Assembly (NCBI GenBank): GCA_019058275.1
Contig: JAHLVW010000066.1
Location: 32,001 to 96,000 of the forward strand
Direction of reading: 5' to 3'
Origin: Candidatus Heimdallarchaeota archaeon
GTDB taxonomy: Archaea; Asgardarchaeota; Heimdallarchaeia; JABLTI01
Length of the DNA stretch: 64,000 nt
Shown here: positions 34,976-60,442 of the stretch, piece after piece
How the letters are laid out: every line of letters starts with the position of its first letter
Position numbering within the stretch: the first letter of the stretch is position 1
Notes under the pieces: generated by a model
Database searches by the model: none
Told to the model about the DNA's origin: nothing
Seen by the model: only the letters and a program-made list of their open reading frames with translations
Translations under genes and position numbers: made by a program

Positions 34976-35971
34976 TGTTAAGTAAACCTAATATGGTGAC
35001 AGTCTTCTCTAGTTAATTAAGTGATATCAACTATGATGAGAAAACTATCACCACAAGAACGATTAGAGCTCTTGCAGATATACTTTTCTGCGAGAACGGA
35101 AAAGGAGCTCTGCGCAGAGCAGCAGCTGAAAGTAACAACACTGTGCAAAAGCAGAGGGATATCTAGGAACAGTTTTTACCACTGGAAGAAGCGATTCGAG
35201 CGAGAAGGCACAGCGGGGTGTTCGACAGACCAGCAGGAAGAAAGCAGCTACCAGGAAGAACCAGCATCCCTGAAGAACTGGTGCAACGAATGATCTTTTG
35301 CAGGCAATTCCTTGGCTTAAGCTTTCGACAGATTGCTGAAGCACTGCAGCGCTTCTTGGTCGTCAGTCACACAACGATCAGACGAATTTTGCACCTGCGA
35401 AAGGTCACAGGAAGGGTCTACAAGCGACGAAAAAAGGTTTGGCAGCGGTTTGAGAGCAAAAAACCCGATGAACTGTGGCAAATCGACCATTCGAGGAGCG
35501 ATTTCGATGGCAAATGGCGTCTGGTGATCATGGACGACCACTCACGAATGGTTCTCTGCTGCGAAGAAGTTTCTTCTCTCAAGAGCAAAGAGTGCTGTGC
35601 CTTACTTTTGCAACCGATTACAAAACTTGCTGGTCGACGACCGAGGAAGCTTTTGAGTGATAATCACCGAGCCTTTCGCTCACGAGCCTTCAAAGAGCTC
35701 TTGTCTCGTCTCGGGATTAGGGCTGTTCATTCTTCTGTTCATCACCCGCAAACCCTTGGGAAAGTCGAGCGATTCAATCGCACCTTCCAGGAGAATGCTT
35801 GGTTGTTTGAGCACCCCCAAGCCTTCCTAAAGTACTACAATTCTGAACGAACCCATTCCTCCCTCTTTGGTCGTACTCCTGCTGAACGTTACTTCCGAGA
35901 AGAAGGCTTTAAAAGTACTATCGAAATCAGTTCTTTAGGAAGAATTGTCACACGATTAGGTTAACTTTACA
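34976..35971 (+). mobile_element. IS481-like insertion sequence (996 bp) with TGT...ACA ends and a 14-bp target duplication
   Basis: Left end TGTTAAGTAAACCTAATATGGTGACA vs right-end reverse complement TGTAAAGTTAACCTAATCGTGTGACA; DR catttttatagctt at 34962-34975 and 35972-35985; clearly higher GC than host. Confidence 0.88.
35021..35964 (+). pseudogene. IS481/rve-type DDE transposase, frameshifted near 35218
   Basis: HTH part (GISRNSFYHWKKRF..EG.AG) is in a different frame from the catalytic part (LWQID, DDHSR, SDN, HPQTLGKVERFNRT). Confidence 0.85.
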
Positions 35972-45326: not shown

Positions 45327-46037
45327 ATGCATTTATCAACTGAACCGACCAACAATTGGTGTGACAAAACATTGAGAAGAAGGAAATTATTACCAATTAG
45401 CCTTGCTCTAACATTAACATGCTTTGCATTATTTAGTGGTTTAGGTTACATTAATTCTGAACCAACATTAAATACGATTATTTTGTATGTGGCTGCAGAT
45501 AACACTCAACCAATTATTGGAGATCAAATTAATTTTACAGTGGTCTTTAAAAATTTCTTAAATGAAACCGAGAGCCTCTCAGAGGTTGTTGTAGAAACTT
45601 CAACATCTACAGAGATAAATATTACAAATGTGTTTGATGCTTCATTTAATGAAACCACATATAACACAACACAATATTATGTAGACAATGAAAATTCAAC
45701 CGATCCAATATTCTGGATTGAAGAAAATTATTTCAATATCACATGGGCAAAATTCCATCAAAACATGACATATAACTTCTGGTTTACAGTAAATTGTACA
45801 GATACAGGTTTATTCTTTGTTGATAATCCATATATTCATTATAAATTGAATAATGAAACAAATACAGTTCGTGGCTCAGGTTATAACTTTGAGGTCAGAG
45901 ACATTCCCGTAACAACTTCAATTCCGTCACCTGCCAGAGGAGATTGGACTTGGCAATGGTGGTTTATTGGAAGCATTCTTGTTGTAGTACCCATAATTGT
46001 GATTGTAATCACAAGACTAACCTTATGGAAAAGATAA
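45327..46037 (+). CDS. Type I membrane glycoprotein, TRAP-beta/DUF11-like Ig domain
   Basis: Signal peptide, GDQINFTVVFKN, NITWAKF, TGLFFVDNPYIHY, Trp-rich C-terminal TM; many N-x-S/T sequons. Confidence 0.5.
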   Translation: MHLSTEPTNNWCDKTLRRRKLLPISLALTLTCFALFSGLGYINSEPTLNTIILYVAADNTQPIIGDQINFTVVFKNFLNETESLSEVVVETSTSTEINITNVFDASFNETTYNTTQYYVDNENSTDPIFWIEENYFNITWAKFHQNMTYNFWFTVNCTDTGLFFVDNPYIHYKLNNETNTVRGSGYNFEVRDIPVTTSIPSPARGDWTWQWWFIGSILVVVPIIVIVITRLTLWKR

Positions 46038-46077: not shown

Positions 46078-47175
46078 TTATTTTTCATTTATTGTTCTTT
46101 TATACAAATTCTCATAGAGAGGTATTATTTTATCTGGGTGGAATTTCTCCCTCGCAACCTTAGCTGCATTCTCTCCATAAGTTTTCAATAGTTTCTCATC
46201 TTCGATTAAGATACTCATGTAATTTGCAAGAGCATCAACATCTCCAACATCAGCTAAGAAACCAGTCTGTTCATGAGCAACTACCTCAGGTAATCCACCT
46301 GCTTTTGAAGCTATAACTGGTATTTTGCAGGACATTGCTTCAAGTGCTGCTAAACCAAAGCTCTCAATTTCAGAGGGTATTAAAAAGACGTCTGTATAAC
46401 ATAAAATTCTAGGAACATTAAGTAAGCTGCCACGGAAAGTTATTGAGTCCTTCAATCCCATTGATATCGCTAAATCTCTACAATATTCTAATTCTGGTCC
46501 TTGTCCAATCATTTCCAATCGAATGTTTTTGTGTTGTTTGTGTATTTTTGAAAAAGCTTGAATTATATCAGGTGATCTTTTTACTTGTCTGAAATTAGAT
46601 ACATGAGAGAAAACAAATTCATCTTTTTCTGGTTTCTTAATATGGGCGAATTTATTTGGATCTACAAAATTATAAATAACCTCAATTTCTTTTTCAATAT
46701 TATATCTTTCATAAATAAAATCCAACATGAAATTTGAAACTGTTGTAAGAGCATCATGATTGTTTAAGCTTAACTCAAGAATTGGCTTATAAGCATCATC
46801 AAGCCCAAGCAAATGCATGTCTGAACCATGTAGTGTTGAAATTATATTCATTTTATTATCTGTTAATTTTGCTAAATATAAAGAAATAGAGTGAGGAATT
46901 GCATAATGTGCATGAAAAATATCAATCTTTTGTTCTTTATAAAGTTTAGATAATAGTGAAGCAAGTATTACCGTATAAGGTTTGTACTTAAATAGTGGGT
47001 ACGAAAGTATGTTCACTTCATGAAAGATAAAATTCTCTTCAAGCTTTAATCGTTCAGGTAGCTGGTATGATATAAAATGAACTTCATGCCCATTTTCCAT
47101 TAATTTTAATCCCAACTCAGTACCAACAATACCGCTACCACCAAATGTAGGATAGTTTATGATTCCAATCTTCAT
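46078..47175 (-). CDS. bshA: N-acetyl-alpha-D-glucosaminyl L-malate synthase
   Basis: YPTFGGSGIVGTELG, HAHYAIPH, TLHGSD, HVSNFRQVKR, ESFGLAALEAM. Confidence 0.9.
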   Translation of the reverse strand: MKIGIINYPTFGGSGIVGTELGLKLMENGHEVHFISYQLPERLKLEENFIFHEVNILSYPLFKYKPYTVILASLLSKLYKEQKIDIFHAHYAIPHSISLYLAKLTDNKMNIISTLHGSDMHLLGLDDAYKPILELSLNNHDALTTVSNFMLDFIYERYNIEKEIEVIYNFVDPNKFAHIKKPEKDEFVFSHVSNFRQVKRSPDIIQAFSKIHKQHKNIRLEMIGQGPELEYCRDLAISMGLKDSITFRGSLLNVPRILCYTDVFLIPSEIESFGLAALEAMSCKIPVIASKAGGLPEVVAHEQTGFLADVGDVDALANYMSILIEDEKLLKTYGENAAKVAREKFHPDKIIPLYENLYKRTINEK

Positions 47176-47205
47176 TTTTTCACACCTTATTTTTATTCTG
47201 CGATT

Positions 47206-47883
47206 TTAAAAGAATATCTTCCAATCCTTTAATGCTATTGGATTCTTCAAGAAGAATGCTTCACCAAAATCAGCCAAGATTAATGAACCATAAAAACGAC
47301 ATCTCTCATAAACTGGAAAAGGCAGATATTCCTTAGAAAATTCTTTGAATTGAGACTTATATGTCATGATTGCTTCTTTCTTTCTTTCAAATTCTTGACT
47401 TATATCCAAAATATAAGAGGGAGAAAATTGTCCATTTAATTCGTAATAGATCATATGGTTTACTTTATACCTTGGATGATCCAGTTCTACTTTCTTCAGT
47501 TTGGCATAATGACAAGCTTTTGTAACAATATCAGATGTTGTTGAGTGATCCGGATGGCGGTCTTCCCAGTAAGGAATTAAAACAACTTTAGGTTGATACT
47601 CTCGTATCTTACTAGCAACAAAAAGGATAGTCTTCTTTTTATCCTCAAATGGTAGGTTCGCATCTGGAAAACCTAGATTCTCTCTAATTTTTACTCCCAA
47701 ATTTTTTTTAGCTTTATCTGCTTCATTTATGCGAGTTTCTTTATTACCTAGTGACCCCATTTCTCCTGTAGTTAAATCTATAATGCCTACAGCTAATCCC
47801 TCATCAACAGCTTTAACAATTGCTCCACCTGCACCCAATTCTGCATCATCAGGATGTGGAGCAAACACTAAAACATCCAACAT
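47206..47883 (-). CDS. bshB1: Bacillithiol biosynthesis deacetylase
   Basis: FAPHPDDAELGAGG, DLTTGEMGS, DRHPDH, YKSQF, FGEAF. Confidence 0.88.
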   Translation of the reverse strand: MLDVLVFAPHPDDAELGAGGAIVKAVDEGLAVGIIDLTTGEMGSLGNKETRINEADKAKKNLGVKIRENLGFPDANLPFEDKKKTILFVASKIREYQPKVVLIPYWEDRHPDHSTTSDIVTKACHYAKLKKVELDHPRYKVNHMIYYELNGQFSPSYILDISQEFERKKEAIMTYKSQFKEFSKEYLPFPVYERCRFYGSLILADFGEAFFLKNPIALKDWKIFF

Positions 47884-49487
47884 TTCATCACCACATGATT
47901 GCCTGGATCAACTTTTGTTAGGTAATCCTGCATACAATTTAGTAAATTCATTGAATATTTGTTAAGATATTGAAAGATGTTAAAAACTCTTTCTTGTGGT
48001 TTATCCCCTGGAAATAGGTAATCTCGAGCTTTTCGTAGCTGATTTTGTAGAACTTTATTATCATCTTTGACGTACTTTATGTACATTCTTTCAATATTTG
48101 ATAGTTCTTTCATAATATTCTGCTTTCTGTGTTGAGAACGATTTCCAAGTTCTTGATTAAAAGTTAAAAGATTTTCATTTAATTCATCAAGTGTTCTAGA
48201 AATTTGATTGAAATATATATCCAAGAAATCTTTATTATCACTTTTAAGCAAATTAGAAGTAAGTCTATTTAAATCCCTAAGCTCAGCAATATTAAATTTA
48301 TATTTTTCAATAATTCTGTTAATATGTCTTTCAATTACTGTAGCACCAAATCTGAATTGCAAATTAGGTTGAGTTAAACTAAATTCCTTATACAAATCCT
48401 TAATTTGTATATGGTAGCCAATCTCTGAAGGACCTCCGATAAAAATATGTGTTGGGATCATTTGATCTTGAGCAAGAGGTCTAAAAATAGCATTTGTACT
48501 AAATCTTTCTGGATTTGATTGGATTTCATTAGTTATCTCTTCTTTTGTTATTGTTGTTCCATTAGATATTTCATATACTCCATCATTATTCAAAGAAATA
48601 GTATTTCTGTAATATTTCTCATCAATATAGAATAATCCAACTATATTCTCCTTTTTATGCATTTTTGGTTTATAACCAATTTCAGTTAATTTCTTGGTTG
48701 TTTCGAGGAAGATCCTGTTATATTTAATTGGATCTGTTACTAATTTTGTAAAATAGTCTTTTAAGTAAGGTCTGAAAATCCATGGTTCAATTAAAATTAA
48801 CCCCCATTTGCTCATGAGTTTTGACATTAATCTGCTGAAGAATTCACCCCATTTTTTGGATTTATCAAGTGTTTCTTTAATTAGACCTTGATAAAGTTCA
48901 TTGGTAAATTCAGTTACTGGTAATATATCAACAATTTCCTTTAACATGTCACTTATTTGTGTTTTATCAAGCTCACAAACTTCAAGACTTTTACCTGTCA
49001 TGAATTTATCTTCAACAACAAATGGAATAATTTCATTCTGTTTGTTTAATACACAAATATTATTTACTTCTTCCACATCATGATCCTCAGAAGCATTCCA
49101 AAAAAGGGGAATCAAATGTAATTTCTCATCTGAAAACTTCTTTGCATAGTTAATTGCAGAGAGTGTCTTGAAAATGGTATATAACGGTCCTGTGAGAAAG
49201 CCGGGTTGTTGCCCTGTGACAACAAACTTAACCTTTTCATTTTCAACAGATTCGATGTTCTCAAAAACATTTGTTTGTGCACCTATTGATTTATTATATT
49301 TTGTAAGAATTTCCTTTAGTAAACCTCTATCTCCAGTGAAATTGATAGATTGGAATTTAGTAGGTTTCCTATCTATGAAACTGATCATTGGATTTTTACC
49401 ATTAAGATAATCTAATAGCATTGTATTAGGATACATTTTCTCGCGATCAAGTATTTCAAGTTTAATAATATCAGCCATAAATTTCAC
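47868..49487 (-). CDS. bshC: Bacillithiol biosynthesis cysteine-adding enzyme
   Basis: VVTGQQPGFLTGPLYTIFK, FWNASEDHD, GGPSEIGY, PQERVFN. Confidence 0.9.
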   Translation of the reverse strand: MKFMADIIKLEILDREKMYPNTMLLDYLNGKNPMISFIDRKPTKFQSINFTGDRGLLKEILTKYNKSIGAQTNVFENIESVENEKVKFVVTGQQPGFLTGPLYTIFKTLSAINYAKKFSDEKLHLIPLFWNASEDHDVEEVNNICVLNKQNEIIPFVVEDKFMTGKSLEVCELDKTQISDMLKEIVDILPVTEFTNELYQGLIKETLDKSKKWGEFFSRLMSKLMSKWGLILIEPWIFRPYLKDYFTKLVTDPIKYNRIFLETTKKLTEIGYKPKMHKKENIVGLFYIDEKYYRNTISLNNDGVYEISNGTTITKEEITNEIQSNPERFSTNAIFRPLAQDQMIPTHIFIGGPSEIGYHIQIKDLYKEFSLTQPNLQFRFGATVIERHINRIIEKYKFNIAELRDLNRLTSNLLKSDNKDFLDIYFNQISRTLDELNENLLTFNQELGNRSQHRKQNIMKELSNIERMYIKYVKDDNKVLQNQLRKARDYLFPGDKPQERVFNIFQYLNKYSMNLLNCMQDYLTKVDPGNHVVMKCWMF

Positions 49488-49705
49488 ATCAAATATCTAG
49501 CTTAAGGTAAATTATTCACACAAATTTATTTAATTTAATACAGAACAATCTATTTTATGAAATTAAATGTTTAGTTTATTTTATACAAATATATTGATTG
49601 TTCATTTTATTAAGATTGTTTTAGATTTTAAAGAAAAGAATTTAAGGATACTGAACTGTCCTCAATTTAAGAGAAGAATATTAATTTTGAATTTGAGGGT
49701 AAAAA

Positions 49706-50978
49706 ATGTCTGATGATGAAGATAATCCATATGCAAATTTCTTGCAACAACTTGAGAAATCCGCAAAAGTAGCAAATTTGGATCCAGAAGTTCATAAAAT
49801 TTTATGAGAGCCTGAAAGAGAACTAAAAGTATCACTTCCGGTTAGAATGGATGATGGCAAAATTAATGTCTTTATAGGTTATCGAGTTCAACACAGTAAC
49901 TGCTTTAGGCCCCTCGAAAGGCGGGGTTCGTTTTCATCCTAATGTTTCATTAGATGAAGTTAAAGCACTCGCAGCTTGGATGACTTTTAAATGTGCTGTA
50001 GCTGGTTTACCATATGGCAGTGGTAAAGGTGGAGTTATTGTTGAACCACATGATTTGACACAAGGTGAGGTTGAAAGGCTTTCTAGGAGATATTTCTACT
50101 CAATAATGGATATTGTTAATCCTATGAAAGATATCCCAGCTCCTGATGTTAACACAAATAATCAAATTATGAATTGATTTGTTGATACCTACTCAATGAT
50201 AGAAAGGGTCAATACTAATGTAGCAGTAACTGGCAAACCAATAAACTTTGGAGGATCCTTAGGAAGATCATATGCTACAGGAAATGGTGTTCGATTTCAT
50301 ACCATGAGTGCTTTAGAAAAGCTAAACATGAATCCCAAAAAATGTACCTCTGCTGTGCAAGGATTTGGTAATGTTGGTTCATATTCAGCCAAATTCTTCC
50401 AAGATGAAGGTATGAAAGTGGTAGTAGTTTCAGATTATTTTGGTGGAGCTGTTCTTAATAAGAAAGGAATTGATATGAATGATTTAATTAATCATTTCCA
50501 TAAAAAACGAACAATTGCTGGTTACAAAGATGCAGAGCATATTGATGACTTGAATGAGGCCAATAATGCTATCTTAACTGCAGATGTAGATGTCCTTGCA
50601 CCTTGTGCGTTGGAAAATCAAATAACAGATGATAATGCTATGAACGTAAAAGCTAAGATTATTGTAGAAGGAGCAAATGGACCTACGACACCAACTGCTG
50701 ATGAAATGCTACACAAACAAGGTACACTAGTAGTACCAGATATCCTTGCAAACGCTGGTGGTGTAACAGTCTCTTATTTTGAATGGGTTCAGAATTTACA
50801 ATACTATTATTGGACAAAAGATGAAGTAAATACTAAATTGAAGAACTTAATGAATCGTGCTTTTGATAATGTTTGGGATATTAAGGAATCTGAAAACACT
50901 ACTATGCGAGTTTCAGCTTATACTTCAGGTTTAAAACGATTAGAAGAAACCATCAAAATGAGGGGAATATTCACATAG
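49706..50978 (+). pseudogene. Glu/Leu/Phe/Val (glutamate) dehydrogenase, disrupted
   Basis: ATG 49706; TGA 49805-49807; +1 frameshift near 49898 (restores [13 protein letters not shown]); TGA 50175-50177 at a conserved Trp (MN*FVDTY); GGKGG region reads GSGKGG. Confidence 0.88.
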
Positions 50979-51026: not shown

Positions 51027-52463
51027 TTATTTTTTATTCATGACATACTCATGCATTGCTTTTGCTGTTGTTCTTCCAGCTCCCATAGCTAGAATGACTG
51101 TCGCTGTACCAGTGACAATATCTCCACCTGCATAGACTCCTGGAATGGAAGTTTCACCAGTTTCTTCATTGACAATGACACCACCCCATTTATGAGTTTC
51201 CAATTCAGGTGTGTTTCTAGCAATCAATGGGTTAGGTCTTTGACCGATAGCAATTATGAGAGTATCACATTCAATATCAAAACAAGCTCCATCAATGGGT
51301 AAAGGTCTGCATCTGCCTGATTCATCAGGTTCACCTAATTCACATTCTTGACACTCAAGTCCAATGACATTGTTCTTCTCATCACCCATAATTCCTAATG
51401 GACTAGATAGACAATGGAATTCAACACCTTCATCTTGAGCGTGGTGAATTTCTTCATCTCTGGCAGGTGCTTCTGCAATGGATCTTCTGTAAACAATGTA
51501 AGATTTCTCTGCACCAAGTCTTAGAGCAGTTCTTGCACTATCCATAGCGACATTTCCTGCACCAATGGTTATTACTTTCTTACCAATATTTACAGGGGTA
51601 TCAGAACCATCTGGGAACTTGTAGGCTTCCATTAAATTCGCTCGAGTCAAAAACTCGTTTGCAAAATAGACACCATTTAAACTCTCACCGGGAATTCCTA
51701 GATATCTAGGCAAACCTGCGCCAGTTCCAAGAAAGATGGAATCATAACCCATTTCAAATAAATCATCGAGACTATAAGTAAGACCAATTACAGTATTGTA
51801 TTTGATCTCAACGCCCATCTGTTCAAGAGTTTCAATTTCTTCAGCAAGAATTGTTTTTGGTAAACGAAATTCAGGGATACCATAAATTAAAACTCCTCCA
51901 CCCTTGTGAAAAGCTTCAAACAAGGTTACTTTGTGGCCAAATCTAGCTAAATCTGCAGCAGCAACTAATCCAGCAGGACCAGAACCAACAACAGCAATTT
52001 TCTTACCAGTTGATTTTGCTACTTCAGGAGTTGTTCTACCACGTTCACGCTCCCAATCAGCTAAGAATCGCTCTAAACGACCAATTCCTACAGGATCCCA
52101 ACCTTCTTTCTTACCTAAAAGACAAGCTGCTTCACATTGAGATTCTTGTGGACAAACTCTACCACAAATTGCAGGCAAAATATTAGTTTCTTTGATAATC
52201 TTTATACCATTTTTGAAATCTTTTTGGAGGATAGCATCAATGAATGCTGGGATATTAATATCAACAGGACAACCTTCTTGACAGAAAGCTCTTCTACAAT
52301 GAAGACATCGTTCAGCTTCTAAAACAGCTTCAGCTTCAGTGTAACCAAAAGGAACTTCTAAATAATTCTTAATTCGATCCTTTGGTTTTTGTTCCTTCAT
52401 AGAGGTTTTCTTAGGGGTTTTATCACTTCTTTTGTGAACTTTCTTTTTTGTTTCTTCGGTCAT
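51027..52463 (-). CDS. NfnB/SudA (GltD-like) flavo-iron-sulfur subunit
   Basis: EAERCLHC...CP, CGRVCPQESQCE, GSGPAGL, YGIPEFRLPK, GAGNVAMD, GGDIVTG; start ATG 52463 overlaps the upstream stop (ATGA). Confidence 0.88.
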   Translation of the reverse strand: MTEETKKKVHKRSDKTPKKTSMKEQKPKDRIKNYLEVPFGYTEAEAVLEAERCLHCRRAFCQEGCPVDINIPAFIDAILQKDFKNGIKIIKETNILPAICGRVCPQESQCEAACLLGKKEGWDPVGIGRLERFLADWERERGRTTPEVAKSTGKKIAVVGSGPAGLVAAADLARFGHKVTLFEAFHKGGGVLIYGIPEFRLPKTILAEEIETLEQMGVEIKYNTVIGLTYSLDDLFEMGYDSIFLGTGAGLPRYLGIPGESLNGVYFANEFLTRANLMEAYKFPDGSDTPVNIGKKVITIGAGNVAMDSARTALRLGAEKSYIVYRRSIAEAPARDEEIHHAQDEGVEFHCLSSPLGIMGDEKNNVIGLECQECELGEPDESGRCRPLPIDGACFDIECDTLIIAIGQRPNPLIARNTPELETHKWGGVIVNEETGETSIPGVYAGGDIVTGTATVILAMGAGRTTAKAMHEYVMNKK

Positions 52464-53320
52464 TTGTGTTTTCCTCCACAACCATATTCTTTGTTGTATC
52501 TATCCAAAGCAGTTTTTTCGTATTTCTTGTATTGATCTAACCTATTCAACAGCTCATCAAAATCAACTTTGTAAGCATCAAATTCTGGTCCATCGACACA
52601 AGCAAATTGAATTTTACCATCAATTGTAACTCTGCAAGATCCACACATTCCAGTCCCGTCAACCATTATAGGATTTAAACTTGCTATTGTTGGGATGTTG
52701 TATTTCTTAGTTATTTGAGCTACAAATTTCATCATTATTGTTGGTCCAACTGTGAAAATCATATCAAATTTCTTACCTTCTTTCTTAAGGTCTTCAATAG
52801 CATTTTCTAACAAGTGAGTTGTGAACCCCTTCAACCCTTTAGATCCATCATCTGTACAGTATTGCATTTCTTCACAATATTGAGACATCTCATCTTCCCA
52901 AACTAATAGGTCTTCAGTTCTGGCTCCAACCATTCCTATGACAGTATTTCCAGCTTCCTTCATTTCTTTAGCAACTAGATTTGCTAGTGGAATACCCAAA
53001 CCACCTGAAACGATACCTACAGTACCATACTTCTCTACTTCAGTTGGTTTACCTAAGGGTCCAACAACATCTTGAATGAAATCGCCTTTCTCAAGAGTTG
53101 AAAGAAGTTTTGTGGATTGACCAATAACTTGGATAATACAAGTTACTGTTCCTTTTTTCCTATCATATTCAGCTACTGTGATAGGAATTCTTTCAGCTCC
53201 TTCTCTCATTCTGAGAACAAGAAAATTACCTGCTCTAATTTTCTTAGCTATTTGAGGAGCTTTAATTTCTATTAGGAATATGACTTCATGAAGCCATTCT
53301 TTCTTTACAATCTCAAACAT
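52460..53320 (-). CDS. NfnA/SudB ferredoxin-NADP reductase subunit
   Basis: ERIPIT, GPLG, TDDGS.G, SLNPIMVDGTGMCGSCRV, ACVDGPEFD. Confidence 0.9.
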   Translation of the reverse strand: MFEIVKKEWLHEVIFLIEIKAPQIAKKIRAGNFLVLRMREGAERIPITVAEYDRKKGTVTCIIQVIGQSTKLLSTLEKGDFIQDVVGPLGKPTEVEKYGTVGIVSGGLGIPLANLVAKEMKEAGNTVIGMVGARTEDLLVWEDEMSQYCEEMQYCTDDGSKGLKGFTTHLLENAIEDLKKEGKKFDMIFTVGPTIMMKFVAQITKKYNIPTIASLNPIMVDGTGMCGSCRVTIDGKIQFACVDGPEFDAYKVDFDELLNRLDQYKKYEKTALDRYNKEYGCGGKHK

Positions 53321-53483: not shown

Positions 53484-54854
53484 TTATATAATACCTTGTG
53501 CAAGCATTGCTTTTGCAACTTTCAAGAAACCAGCGATATTAGCACCGATTACATAATTTCCTGGTTTACCAAATTCTTCAGCAGTCTTGTAAACAGTATC
53601 ATGAATGTTGATCATGATTTTGTGAAGTCTACCCAAAACTTCATCTTTTGTCCATGCAAGTCTCAAGCTGTTTTGAGACATTTCAAGACCAGAAGTTGAT
53701 ACACCGCCGGCATTAGCTGCTTTACCTGGACCGAAGGAAACACCTTTCTCAATGAAATAGTCAACACCTTCTGGAACAGTTGGCATATTTGCACCTTCGC
53801 AAACAGCAATACAACCATTCTTAACAAGTGCTTTAGCTTCATCCAAGTCAACTTCGTTTTGAGTTGCGCTTGGGAAGGCAATTTCTATATCAGGAACGTA
53901 CCATGGACTCTTGAGATCTTTGTGTTCATTATAGGTGTAGTATTCAACACCTTTGTATTTTTCAGTGTATTCTTTGATTCTACCACGTTTGACGTTCTTC
54001 AAGTTCATGACATATACTAATTTCTTCTTATCAATACCATCTTTGTCAATAATGAAACCAGATGAATCAGATAAGGTAATACATTTACCACCTAATTTGT
54101 TGATTTGTTCAACTGTGAATTGAGCAACGTTACCTGAACCAGAAACTGCACAGATTTTTTCTTTAAGACCAGCTTTATCACCTCGAGCTTTGACCATTTC
54201 TTCAGCAAACCAAACAGAACCATAACCAGTTGCTTCTGGTCTACCAAGGGAACCACCATATTCAGGGGCTTTACCGGTTAAGACACCATGGAAAACGTTT
54301 TTGATTTTACGATATTGACCGAACATATAGCCAATTTCACGAGCACCAACACCAATATCTCCTGCTGGAACATCAAAATCAGCATCTATGTACTTGTAGA
54401 GCTCGGTCATAAGTGATTGACAGAATCTCATGACTTCACCATCAGATTTTCCTTTTGGATCGAAGTCAGAACCACCTTTACCACCGCCCATAGGCAAACC
54501 TGTTAAAGCGTTTTTGAATAATTGTTCAAAAGCTAAGAATTTAAGAATACCATCATAAACTGAAGGATGGAATCTCATACCACCTTTGTAAGGACCTATA
54601 CTCCCTGAAAATTGTATCCTAAATCCTCTGTTTACTTGCACCTTTCCTTTATCATCTACCCATGGTACTCTGAAGTGTATTACTCTTTCAGGTTCCACTA
54701 GTCTCTCAAGGATTCCAGCTTCCACAAATTCTGGATATTTCTCTAGTGCCGGTTCTATTGAATCCAGAACTTCTTTCACTGCTTGGTGAAATTCTGGTTC
54801 ATGTTTATTTCTTTCCAATACTTGCTTGTATATTGGATCTGTAATCTTTCCCAT
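53484..54854 (-). CDS. gdhA: NADP-specific glutamate dehydrogenase
   Basis: EPEFHQAV, GPYKGGMRFHPSV, GGGKGGSDFDPKGKSD, RPEATGYG, KAANAGGV. Confidence 0.93.
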   Translation of the reverse strand: MGKITDPIYKQVLERNKHEPEFHQAVKEVLDSIEPALEKYPEFVEAGILERLVEPERVIHFRVPWVDDKGKVQVNRGFRIQFSGSIGPYKGGMRFHPSVYDGILKFLAFEQLFKNALTGLPMGGGKGGSDFDPKGKSDGEVMRFCQSLMTELYKYIDADFDVPAGDIGVGAREIGYMFGQYRKIKNVFHGVLTGKAPEYGGSLGRPEATGYGSVWFAEEMVKARGDKAGLKEKICAVSGSGNVAQFTVEQINKLGGKCITLSDSSGFIIDKDGIDKKKLVYVMNLKNVKRGRIKEYTEKYKGVEYYTYNEHKDLKSPWYVPDIEIAFPSATQNEVDLDEAKALVKNGCIAVCEGANMPTVPEGVDYFIEKGVSFGPGKAANAGGVSTSGLEMSQNSLRLAWTKDEVLGRLHKIMINIHDTVYKTAEEFGKPGNYVIGANIAGFLKVAKAMLAQGII

Positions 54855-58413: not shown

Positions 58414-60442
58414 TTATTTCCATCGATAATTTCCTTTTATCATCTTGCCTATTTCAAATGATCTTAGTATATCAGTTTGAGACAAAGTACCTATGAGTTT
58501 CATTTCTTCTTTTGAATTGACAACAGGTGCTCTTCGATAGCTATGACGTGTCAATATTTCTAAAGCTTCATCTGCTGATTGGTCTTCAGTAAGAATAACA
58601 TAATTTGGTTCAACATATTTCATTACTGTTTCATCTGTATGATTTTTTAATTGAGCCATTCGAATGTCAGATAAACTTATCATGTCTACTAATTTAACAT
58701 CATTTTTAACAATTGGAAGACCAAAATGTCCTTTTGTTTTAACCATTTCAATTGCGTCATAAATTTTCGCTGTTTCGCAAATATAACTTACATCTTTTGT
58801 CATTATATCTCGGACTTTCGTTTGTGAGAGAATTGTTATGTGTCTGCCTAACTTAATGTTTAACCCCTTATCTGCTAGTGATTGTGTATAAATTGACTCC
58901 TTCAAAAAACTCCTGCAAACTAGATAGCTTATACTACAAGTAAGCATTAACGGAATCATTAGTTTAATATTGCCTGTCATTTCTGCGCCCATAAAAATCA
59001 TTGTTAGTGGTGCTCTTGTTGCTCCAGCAAAAACTGATGCCAAACCTGCTAATGCGAATACAGATACATCAACATCTATGTTATTACCGGTATTAATCAC
59101 AGTCGCAAAGAAATTTCCCAAACATGCACCAATGAATAATGCTGGAGCAAAAATTCCTCCAGGATTATTTGAACCAACTGAAAAGGATGTTATCAAGATT
59201 TTCAATAGTAACAAAACTATTAGAAATGATATTAATGAATTCAGGGGATTTTGCGTTTGTAATTAAGTTACATCATTTTCCAAGATGTTTGTGATTGTTG
59301 TATATCCTGCCCCAAAAATCAATGGAATACCTTTCGCATTTTTTGGACTAATCAAACCAGTTAAACCAGCACATAAAGCACTGAGAACTGGAATATATAA
59401 TCTTGATATTTTTATCCGAGCAAAAATTCCTCTAGTGAAATGAAATATTTTCGTGTAAAATACTCCAATCAAACCTGCAACTATTCCAAACAAAATAAAC
59501 CAATGTAAATCAAAAATGAAAGAATTTCAATCTAATTCTCTTAACAATTCCATTTTGAATGAAGGTTCTGGTATGCCTGTACTATTTGGTGATAGTCTAG
59601 CAATATCAATTATAGCACTAATACTAGATGATGTTAATGATGCTATAACTATAGGAACAATCTCATCTGCAACCAATGATACTAGAAGAATTTCAATACC
59701 AAAAAGTGCTCCGCCAATAGGTGAATTAAATGTTGCTGCTATAGCTGCTGATAACCCACTAATTACAACAATACGCATATTTCTACCATGCAACCCGACA
59801 AGTCTTGCAATCTCAGAACTAAATCCTGCACCTACTTGGGTAATAGGTCCTTCTCTACCAACGCTCAGTCCACCTCCAGAACTAATTACTGAAGTAAACA
59901 TTTTAATTACAGGTGTTCGTCGACGCATAAACCCATCTCTTAAAGCAATGGATTCCATAACATTTGGAATACCAGATCCTTGAGAGTCAGGATCATATCC
60001 CCAAATAATTGGTGTAGTAATCATTGAAGCAATAATTGGTGTGATAATTATTGCTAGGAATTTCCAAGATTAAAAACTATCAAGCATTTGTGGAAATAAT
60101 CTCCATAAAGAGAAAATCAGCTCCAACATAAAGCCATTCGAAACCCCAAGCTGTTAATGTACCAATAACACCTACAACAATAGCTAAAGAATTTATTATG
60201 AAGCTTTTAGATTTAACCAAATCAGACATTGCCTTTCTAGGATGTTTAACATCATCAACGAAATTAGCCCAACTATTTCTTATACATCTCATTGTACTCA
60301 ACCAATTTTTTTTGACAAATCCTGATATTTTTTTCTCCTCTATATCCTCTTCTTGATTTTCATTTTGCTCTGGATGAATTTGCTCCTCTTCAGAAGCATT
60401 ACTTTGTTTTTCAGGTTGAGTCTCTGGATTCTCTTCAGTCAT
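58414..60442 (-). pseudogene. CLC chloride channel with CBS domains, fragmented
   Basis: GSGIP, GREGP, GGIFAP and CBS motifs spread over 4 ORFs; frameshift plus TAA near 60070-60095, in-frame TGA at 59527, in-frame TAA at 59263. Confidence 0.88.

Follow-up and report, generated by a model that had tools for sequence, protein, structure and literature searches.

The question raised by this locus is whether an Asgard archaeon encodes a working pathway to bacillithiol, and if so, where that pathway came from. The window analyzed here is a 64,000-nucleotide stretch, bases 32001-96000 of contig JAHLVW010000066.1, from a Candidatus Heimdallarchaeota assembly (GCA_019058275.1) of 4.12 Mb that is estimated to be 92.8% complete with 6.8% contamination. 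Its minus strand carries three open reading frames (ORFs) in the same direction, bshC, bshB1, and bshA, with coordinates in the window's ORF list exactly matching those of a first-pass annotation, made from the sequence alone, that described them as three intact, tightly coupled bacillithiol genes. Our analysis indicates that this is probably a functional and vertically maintained operon in a Heimdall-group archaeon, that its enzymes would yield bacillithiol or a very close derivative, and that it was most likely acquired as a unit.

The identity of each protein was judged by whether its whole-protein score lies above the curated equivalog cut-off of the relevant NCBIfam model. BshC (47868..49487, minus strand), the putative cysteine-adding enzyme of the final pathway step, scores 375.8 bits on TIGR03998 against a cut-off of 265.8, and by Pfam it consists of PF10079 (263 bits) and PF24850 (66 bits), i.e., a Rossmann-like and a coiled-coil domain. 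It aligns with the Bacillus subtilis BshC structure 4WBD across residues 21-517 (E 3e-47) and keeps the sequence blocks GQQ-GPLYT-K, FW-S-DHD, RFS-N-RP-QD, and PQER. BshB1 (47206..47883, minus strand; 225 amino acids) is the N-acetylglucosamine (GlcNAc)-malate N-deacetylase of the PIG-L/LmbE family, with a PIG-L domain by Pfam, and it scores 220.2 bits on TIGR04001 (cut-off 182.5), compared with 65.7, 31.1, and 26.5 bits on the rival BshB2, Mca, and MshB models. Its top solved relative is Thermus thermophilus TT1542 (1UAN), and its AHPDD and HPDH motifs align with the zinc ligands of Bacillus cereus BC1534 (2IXD), which are His12, Asp15, and His113 (PMC5790435). BshA (46078..47175, minus strand; 365 amino acids), the glycosyltransferase family 4 (GT4) UDP-GlcNAc:L-malate glycosyltransferase, is assigned to GT4 by Pfam and scores 412.0 bits on TIGR03999, where the cut-off is 273.7 and the runner-up NCBIfam family reaches 129.9 bits, and it aligns end to end with the BshA structures 2JJM, 3MBO, 5D00, and 6D9T at 267-300 bits. 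The donor-binding and catalytic residues of Staphylococcus aureus BshA are H118, T120, N171, K209, E280-S-F-G283, and E288 (PMC10361700), and in an alignment to 6N1X and 6D9T the window protein conserves H118, N171, VSN-K209, E280-SFG, and E288, with serine in place of T120. The diagnostic motifs reported in the first-pass annotation are therefore intact in all three enzymes, including the donor-binding and catalytic positions of BshA other than T120, the zinc ligands of BshB1, and the sequence blocks of BshC.

These family assignments predict a pathway of three steps, in which BshA would join GlcNAc from UDP-GlcNAc to L-malate, BshB1, as a zinc deacetylase, would then strip the acetyl group, and BshC would add cysteine to give bacillithiol or a very close derivative. 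The arrangement of the genes is as tight as first described, with a 16-nt overlap between bshC and bshB1 and a 30-nt spacer between bshB1 and bshA, and the ATG of bshA is preceded at 8 nt by GGTG, a ribosome-binding-like site. The bshC frame encodes 539 amino acids from a GTG at 49487 or 536 amino acids from an ATG at 49478, and the latter is the likelier start because the database entry for this BshC has 536 residues. GC content at third codon positions is 0.22-0.24 for the bsh genes and 0.222 +/- 0.033 for 23 other window ORFs, which bears out the earlier statement that the composition of the operon is host-like. The AT-rich intergenic stretch upstream of bshC (49488..49705, minus strand) is presumed to contain the operon promoter, although TATA-like strings carry no information in a genome that is itself AT-rich.

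A first consideration is whether the operon belongs to this genome at all. Bacterial DNA misjoined to, or misbinned with, an archaeal genome might be suspected from the 6.8% contamination estimate, and from the fact that one member of the genus is labeled Bathyarchaeia at NCBI when the other genus-mates carry the name Heimdallarchaeota, but this explanation is exceedingly improbable. In seven other, independent assemblies of the same genus, on contigs of up to 362 kb, the operon sits between identical Asgard flanking genes on both sides, and chimerism, which the first-pass annotation had named as what would overturn its reading, is excluded for that reason. One flank in these assemblies consists of an ORF with no assigned function, a Roadblock gene, UppS, NYN, an ORF with no Pfam match, a second Roadblock gene, and an HD-domain gene, and the other consists of GltD-like, GDH, and aRF1 genes; the neighbors in the window are likewise archaeal or eukaryote-like, and include aRF1, a Hef helicase-nuclease, and two Roadblock/LC7 genes. 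From these neighbors and from the names that genus-mates bear at NCBI, the host was judged to be a Heimdall-group Asgard archaeon. The host-like codon composition and the divergence of the operon, which tracks that of the genus, also speak against a bacterial contaminant. The ratio of nonsynonymous to synonymous substitution rates (dN/dS) between close genus pairs is 0.11-0.15 for bshC, 0.11-0.24 for bshB, and 0.04-0.06 for bshA. Purifying selection acts on all three genes, and the selection that the first-pass annotation had deduced from the intactness of the operon is confirmed by these values, which are well below 1.

The next question is how far this operon represents Asgard archaea in general, and a survey of 400 genomes of the Asgard phylum, with families labeled by number (f1, f2, and so on), shows that it does so only in a limited sense. 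BshC lies above its cut-off in 11 of the 400 genomes, namely 10 of the 11 members of the window's genus (the window's own genome among them) and a genome of a different family, where it is on a single 5.3-kb contig; a truncated canonical copy also occurs in the sister genus within the window's family, and in approximately 190 further genomes the sole match is BshC-like and weak, at 40-110 bits. BshA is above cut-off in 146 of the 400, distributed over families f1-f5, which belong to the same class, and f12, f31, and f32, with none in f6 (0/22) or f20 (0/135). In about 135 of the 400 genomes, an equivalog-grade BshA (285-398 bits) is found beside a very divergent BshC-like gene (for example, L127 G015:C1:1426863-1429501 and L129 G360:C169), whose product passes Pfam PF10079 and bears the NCBI label "bacillithiol biosynthesis protein BshC", yet retains 22 of the 51 positions that are invariant in standard BshC and is 22-26% identical to the window BshC. 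The PIG-L gene adjoins this cluster divergently in f31 and lies about 11 kb away in closed Heimdallarchaeaceae genomes, and the Asgard-type PIG-L protein, at 94 bits, falls under the BshB1 cut-off. The Asgard "bsh" matches are thus of two kinds, of which the window holds the rare, standard kind. Restricted to a single Heimdall family, the canonical operon does not, in this form, characterize Asgard archaea at large. The first-pass inference that this Asgard lineage uses bacillithiol or a variant as its low-molecular-weight thiol is reasonable and partly supported.

The window's own genome has a single BshC and a single BshA, with no second BshA or BshC-like gene. It does have a second PIG-L gene (G000:C88), which was considered as a remnant of the Asgard-type pathway and rejected: the gene is genus-wide, and its Heimdallarchaeaceae orthologue, to which it is 55% identical, differs from the PIG-L of the bsh cluster in those genomes (23%). 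The 5.3-kb contig mentioned above (G286:C95, locus L124), from a different Asgard family, carries a canonical bshC-bshB-bshA whose BshC is 50% identical to that of the window; it adjoins an archaeal-type ATPase, shows none of the synteny of the genus, and may represent either another lineage that carries the operon or a contig placed in the wrong bin.

Outside the Asgard phylum, collinear bshC-bshB-bshA operons occur in two Bathyarchaeota genomes and one Theionarchaea metagenome-assembled genome (MAG), and in many sediment bacteria, among them Aminicenantes, Dethiobacter, Latescibacterota, Planctomycetota, and Ignavibacteria. No fourth gene was found to travel with the operon across phyla, the three bsh genes being the only ones common to the compared loci; the extras that recur there are antisense shadow ORFs, and other neighbors are lineage-specific, such as an Aminicenantes set. 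In a concatenated tree of 30 operons (1157 columns, LG+C20), a split with 100/99 support divides the 11 archaeal operons from the 19 bacterial ones, and the Heimdall family groups with Bathyarchaeota at 95/89, on a long stem of 1.31 substitutions per site. When the Asgard type is included in a BshC tree, the family, with a stem of 1.18 substitutions per site, shares a clade supported at 100/99 with Bathyarchaeota, Theionarchaea, and some contigs labeled Patescibacteria, and the Asgard type is placed elsewhere on a branch of approximately 3.7 substitutions per site. The window BshC is about 35% identical to its nearest relatives outside the family. The window BshA is 44-48% identical to bacterial and Bathyarchaeota BshA compared with 36-41% to that of sister Heimdall families, and it lies outside the Asgard-type clade in an unrooted BshA tree. 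The most economical reading of these comparisons, and the most likely one, is that the whole operon was laterally acquired by the ancestor of the family, where it replaced Asgard-type genes. In this scenario, the three-gene unit would have entered from a collinear bshCBA pool shared among anoxic-sediment archaea (Bathyarchaeota and Theionarchaea) and bacteria, and would now stand in for the older, divergent BshA/BshC-like pair that the sister families have.

Some of the same analyses pull in the other direction. In an approximately unbiased (AU) test, a sister relationship between the BshC of the family and that of the Asgard type was not rejected (log-likelihood difference 10.9, p 0.063), so that the attempt at a formal rejection of vertical descent fell short of significance; the unrooted BshA tree is compatible with the same sisterhood, with the family and the Asgard-type clade as neighbors in it; and the "archaeal" operon clade also includes short contigs labeled Patescibacteria or "bacterium". 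These points count against transfer into the family, and the trees, being unrooted and with long stems, do not fix a direction of transfer. Together with the wide occurrence of above-cut-off BshA among Asgard genomes, the AU result and the BshA tree would suit vertical inheritance from an Asgard ancestor that had bsh genes, with the family keeping a slowly evolving form and the other lineages a fast-diverging copy or paralogue. We think this quite unlikely. The other BshA-bearing families of the class (f2-f5) all have the divergent type, as do f12 and f31 from other classes, and since the window's family is nested among such families, vertical descent needs many parallel losses or accelerations. 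Furthermore, the best trees join the family to Bathyarchaeota and Theionarchaea, the C-B-A gene order matches that of the outside operons and not that of the Asgard-type clusters, and the Asgard type retains fewer than half of the invariant BshC positions.

If lateral acquisition accounts for the presence of the operon, the remaining question is what it makes and how the product is used. Several considerations weigh against the production of bacillithiol itself. There has been no detection of bacillithiol in any archaeon (PMC7278568), and even in bacteria, the BshC reaction has never been reconstituted in vitro and the activated cysteine donor has not been identified (PMC5790435). In addition, in the 11 genomes of the genus (completeness 64-93%), none of the known redox partners is found above cut-off, with 0/11 for YpdA/Bdr (TIGR04018; best score 91.7 bits against 339.9), 0/11 for BrxC/YtxJ (TIGR04019), and 0/11 for BrxA/B (PF06491), so that the earlier report of no bacilliredoxin or reductase gene in the window holds genus-wide. 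Three other hosts of the same operon, with a closed chromosome from Bathyarchaeota, a MAG from Theionarchaea, and a chromosome from Aminicenantes, likewise lack Brx, YtxJ, and YpdA, and YpdA and BrxA/B are present in a Latescibacterota-like chromosome that also has it. Absence of the partners is therefore typical of part of the operon's host range and is no argument against synthesis, and since BrxA/B, YtxJ, and YpdA are all missing, recycling is probably carried out by another reductase system. The DinB/YfiT family includes bacillithiol S-transferases. Members of this family (PF05163) exceed the Pfam cut-off in 8 of the 11 genus genomes, and the window's own genome has five matches, four of them above cut-off, though it is a broad family and the genes match no specific NCBIfam model, so they are not specific evidence. 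The genome also has two thioredoxin-reductase-like genes. The thiol might be used by DinB-family transferases, or it might serve in metal or electrophile buffering.

The missing partners also bear on the possibility that a working operon yields a variant of bacillithiol or some other metabolite derived from glucosamine-malate, for instance one that is N-methylated or that contains another amino acid or another acceptor acid. The long stem of the family in both the concatenated and BshC trees and the modest identity of its BshC to outside relatives would be in keeping with such a product, and there is a precedent in the N-methyl-bacillithiol that occurs in Chlorobi (PMC12719100); the same paper names PDB entry 9RI2 for NmbA, the methyltransferase of N-methyl-bacillithiol producers. 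We consider this alternative unlikely, though worth keeping in view, because all three proteins exceed equivalog cut-offs that were built on bacillithiol producers, BshA is conserved at its donor-side and catalytic residues and BshB at its zinc site, and none of the lineages has a further tailoring gene linked to the operon. Since the genes are real, as are their coupling, intactness, and the selection on them, the genome is best read as encoding the production of bacillithiol or a close variant.

The first-pass annotation overstated the novelty of finding bacillithiol genes in an archaeon. Rawat and Maupin-Furlow listed 39 archaeal InterPro matches each for BshA and BshC in 2020, mostly in Asgard archaea (PMC7278568, section 13), and in MAGs of Heimdallarchaeota the NCBI pipeline already gives these proteins the names BshA and BshC; a 2025 paper in which no archaeon had the complete pathway had limited its search to RefSeq (PMC12719100). 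Because the idea was thus already published and present in database annotation, the gain here is a refinement and an experimental entry point and not a discovery. What is new is the sorting of Asgard bsh genes into canonical and divergent types, the group of collinear archaeal operons, and the genus-wide lack of the known partners. A laterally shared standard operon can now be separated from a divergent Asgard-type pathway, in which the function of the final enzyme is uncertain. For testing bacillithiol production directly in archaea, the window operon is the cleanest candidate, since all three of its enzymes match characterized bacterial ones, and the lack of the known redox partners points to another recycling system. 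A broader proposal, which we offer tentatively and with some doubt, is that bacillithiol-type thiols are an old archaeal trait: the archaea-rich bshCBA clade of one Heimdall family, Bathyarchaeota, and Theionarchaea would make authentic bacillithiol, the older Asgard-type pathway, present in about one-third of Asgard genomes, would make a related thiol, and the window's family would have given up the old pathway in exchange for the standard one. If this is true, the archaea most closely related to eukaryotes used a sugar-cysteine thiol instead of glutathione, along with other recycling enzymes.

The surroundings of the operon show several further features. The first-pass annotation described the neighboring genes as decaying, and this is correct for two of them, most of the others being intact. 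A glutamate dehydrogenase (GDH)-family paralogue between bshC and the GltD-like gene (49706-50978, plus strand) is interrupted by an in-frame stop and by two or more frameshifts. It shares about 30% identity with the intact GDH at 53484-54854 and is missing from this site in genus-mates G083 and G089, where bshC adjoins the GltD-like gene. The second is a CLC chloride-channel gene with CBS domains that is split into at least two ORFs (58414-59214 and 59527-60024, minus strand), which span Pfam profile positions 9-143 and 246-346 with the middle missing or frameshifted, and it is likely a pseudogene or an assembly error. The NfnB/GltD-like flavin- and iron-sulfur-dependent (FAD/FeS) oxidoreductase gene (51027-53320, minus strand) is always directly upstream of bshC in the genus (compared with genus-mate loci L119, L121, L122, L123, and L125), and exists in two forms, one of 484 amino acids with a 286-residue DHODB-type partner (the window's own genome, G083, and G089) and the other, elsewhere, an ORF of approximately 880-1000 amino acids; its position beside bshC may be plain synteny. 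On the other side, an ORF of 236 amino acids (45327-46037, plus strand) is convergent with bshA, with the stop codons 40 nt apart, and has no Pfam or NCBIfam match. It occupies the same position in every genus-mate examined with only 38-47% identity, and so evolves much faster than its neighbors. A 248-residue rve-family integrase/transposase ORF (35218-35964, plus strand) indicates that there are mobile elements on the contig, and a scan of the window for tRNAs and Rfam families found none. The genus-mate G090 (L039/L122; DATKZI010000037.1), which is named "Candidatus Bathyarchaeia archaeon SMAG_U14241" at NCBI, shares the Asgard synteny block, including the Roadblock genes, the ORF with no Pfam match, and aRF1, and falls in the window's genus, so its label looks wrong.

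Several known systems can be compared with the window operon. The Asgard-type clusters of the Heimdallarchaeaceae and f31 come from the same phylum and comprise the same three enzyme families, but they differ in gene order, with PIG-L divergent from bshA and the bshC-like gene, or with bshA convergent with the bshC-like gene, in place of the C-B-A order of the window. The Bathyarchaeota and Theionarchaea operons, which carry NCBI annotation, have the same gene order and spacing as the window operon and are the closest to it in the concatenated and BshC trees, with identities of 32-35% for BshC, approximately 38-47% for BshB, and 44-46% for BshA, although they belong to other phyla and have no flanking genes in common with the window. 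With respect to the characterized bacterial BshA, BshB1, and BshC enzymes of B. subtilis, Bacillus anthracis, S. aureus, Deinococcus, and Thermus, the window enzymes match at the equivalog level, and they share folds and motifs at moderate identity with the solved structures of BshA (2JJM, 5D00, and 6D9T), BshB (2IXD, 6P2T, and 1UAN), and BshC (4WBD). In B. subtilis, bshA-bshB1 and bshC are in separate operons (PMC5790435), whereas the window has all three in one tight operon in an archaeal host, and the Firmicutes system includes the BrxA/B, YtxJ, and YpdA proteins that the genus does not have. Finally, the mycothiol pathway of Actinobacteria follows an analogous logic, in which a GT4 glycosyltransferase (MshA) and a PIG-L deacetylase (MshB) act before cysteine is added to the glucosamine conjugate by MshC. 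On the mycothiol models, however, the scores of the window proteins fall far short, with 67 bits against 462 for MshA and 26 against 224 for MshB, and the window BshC is unrelated to MshC.

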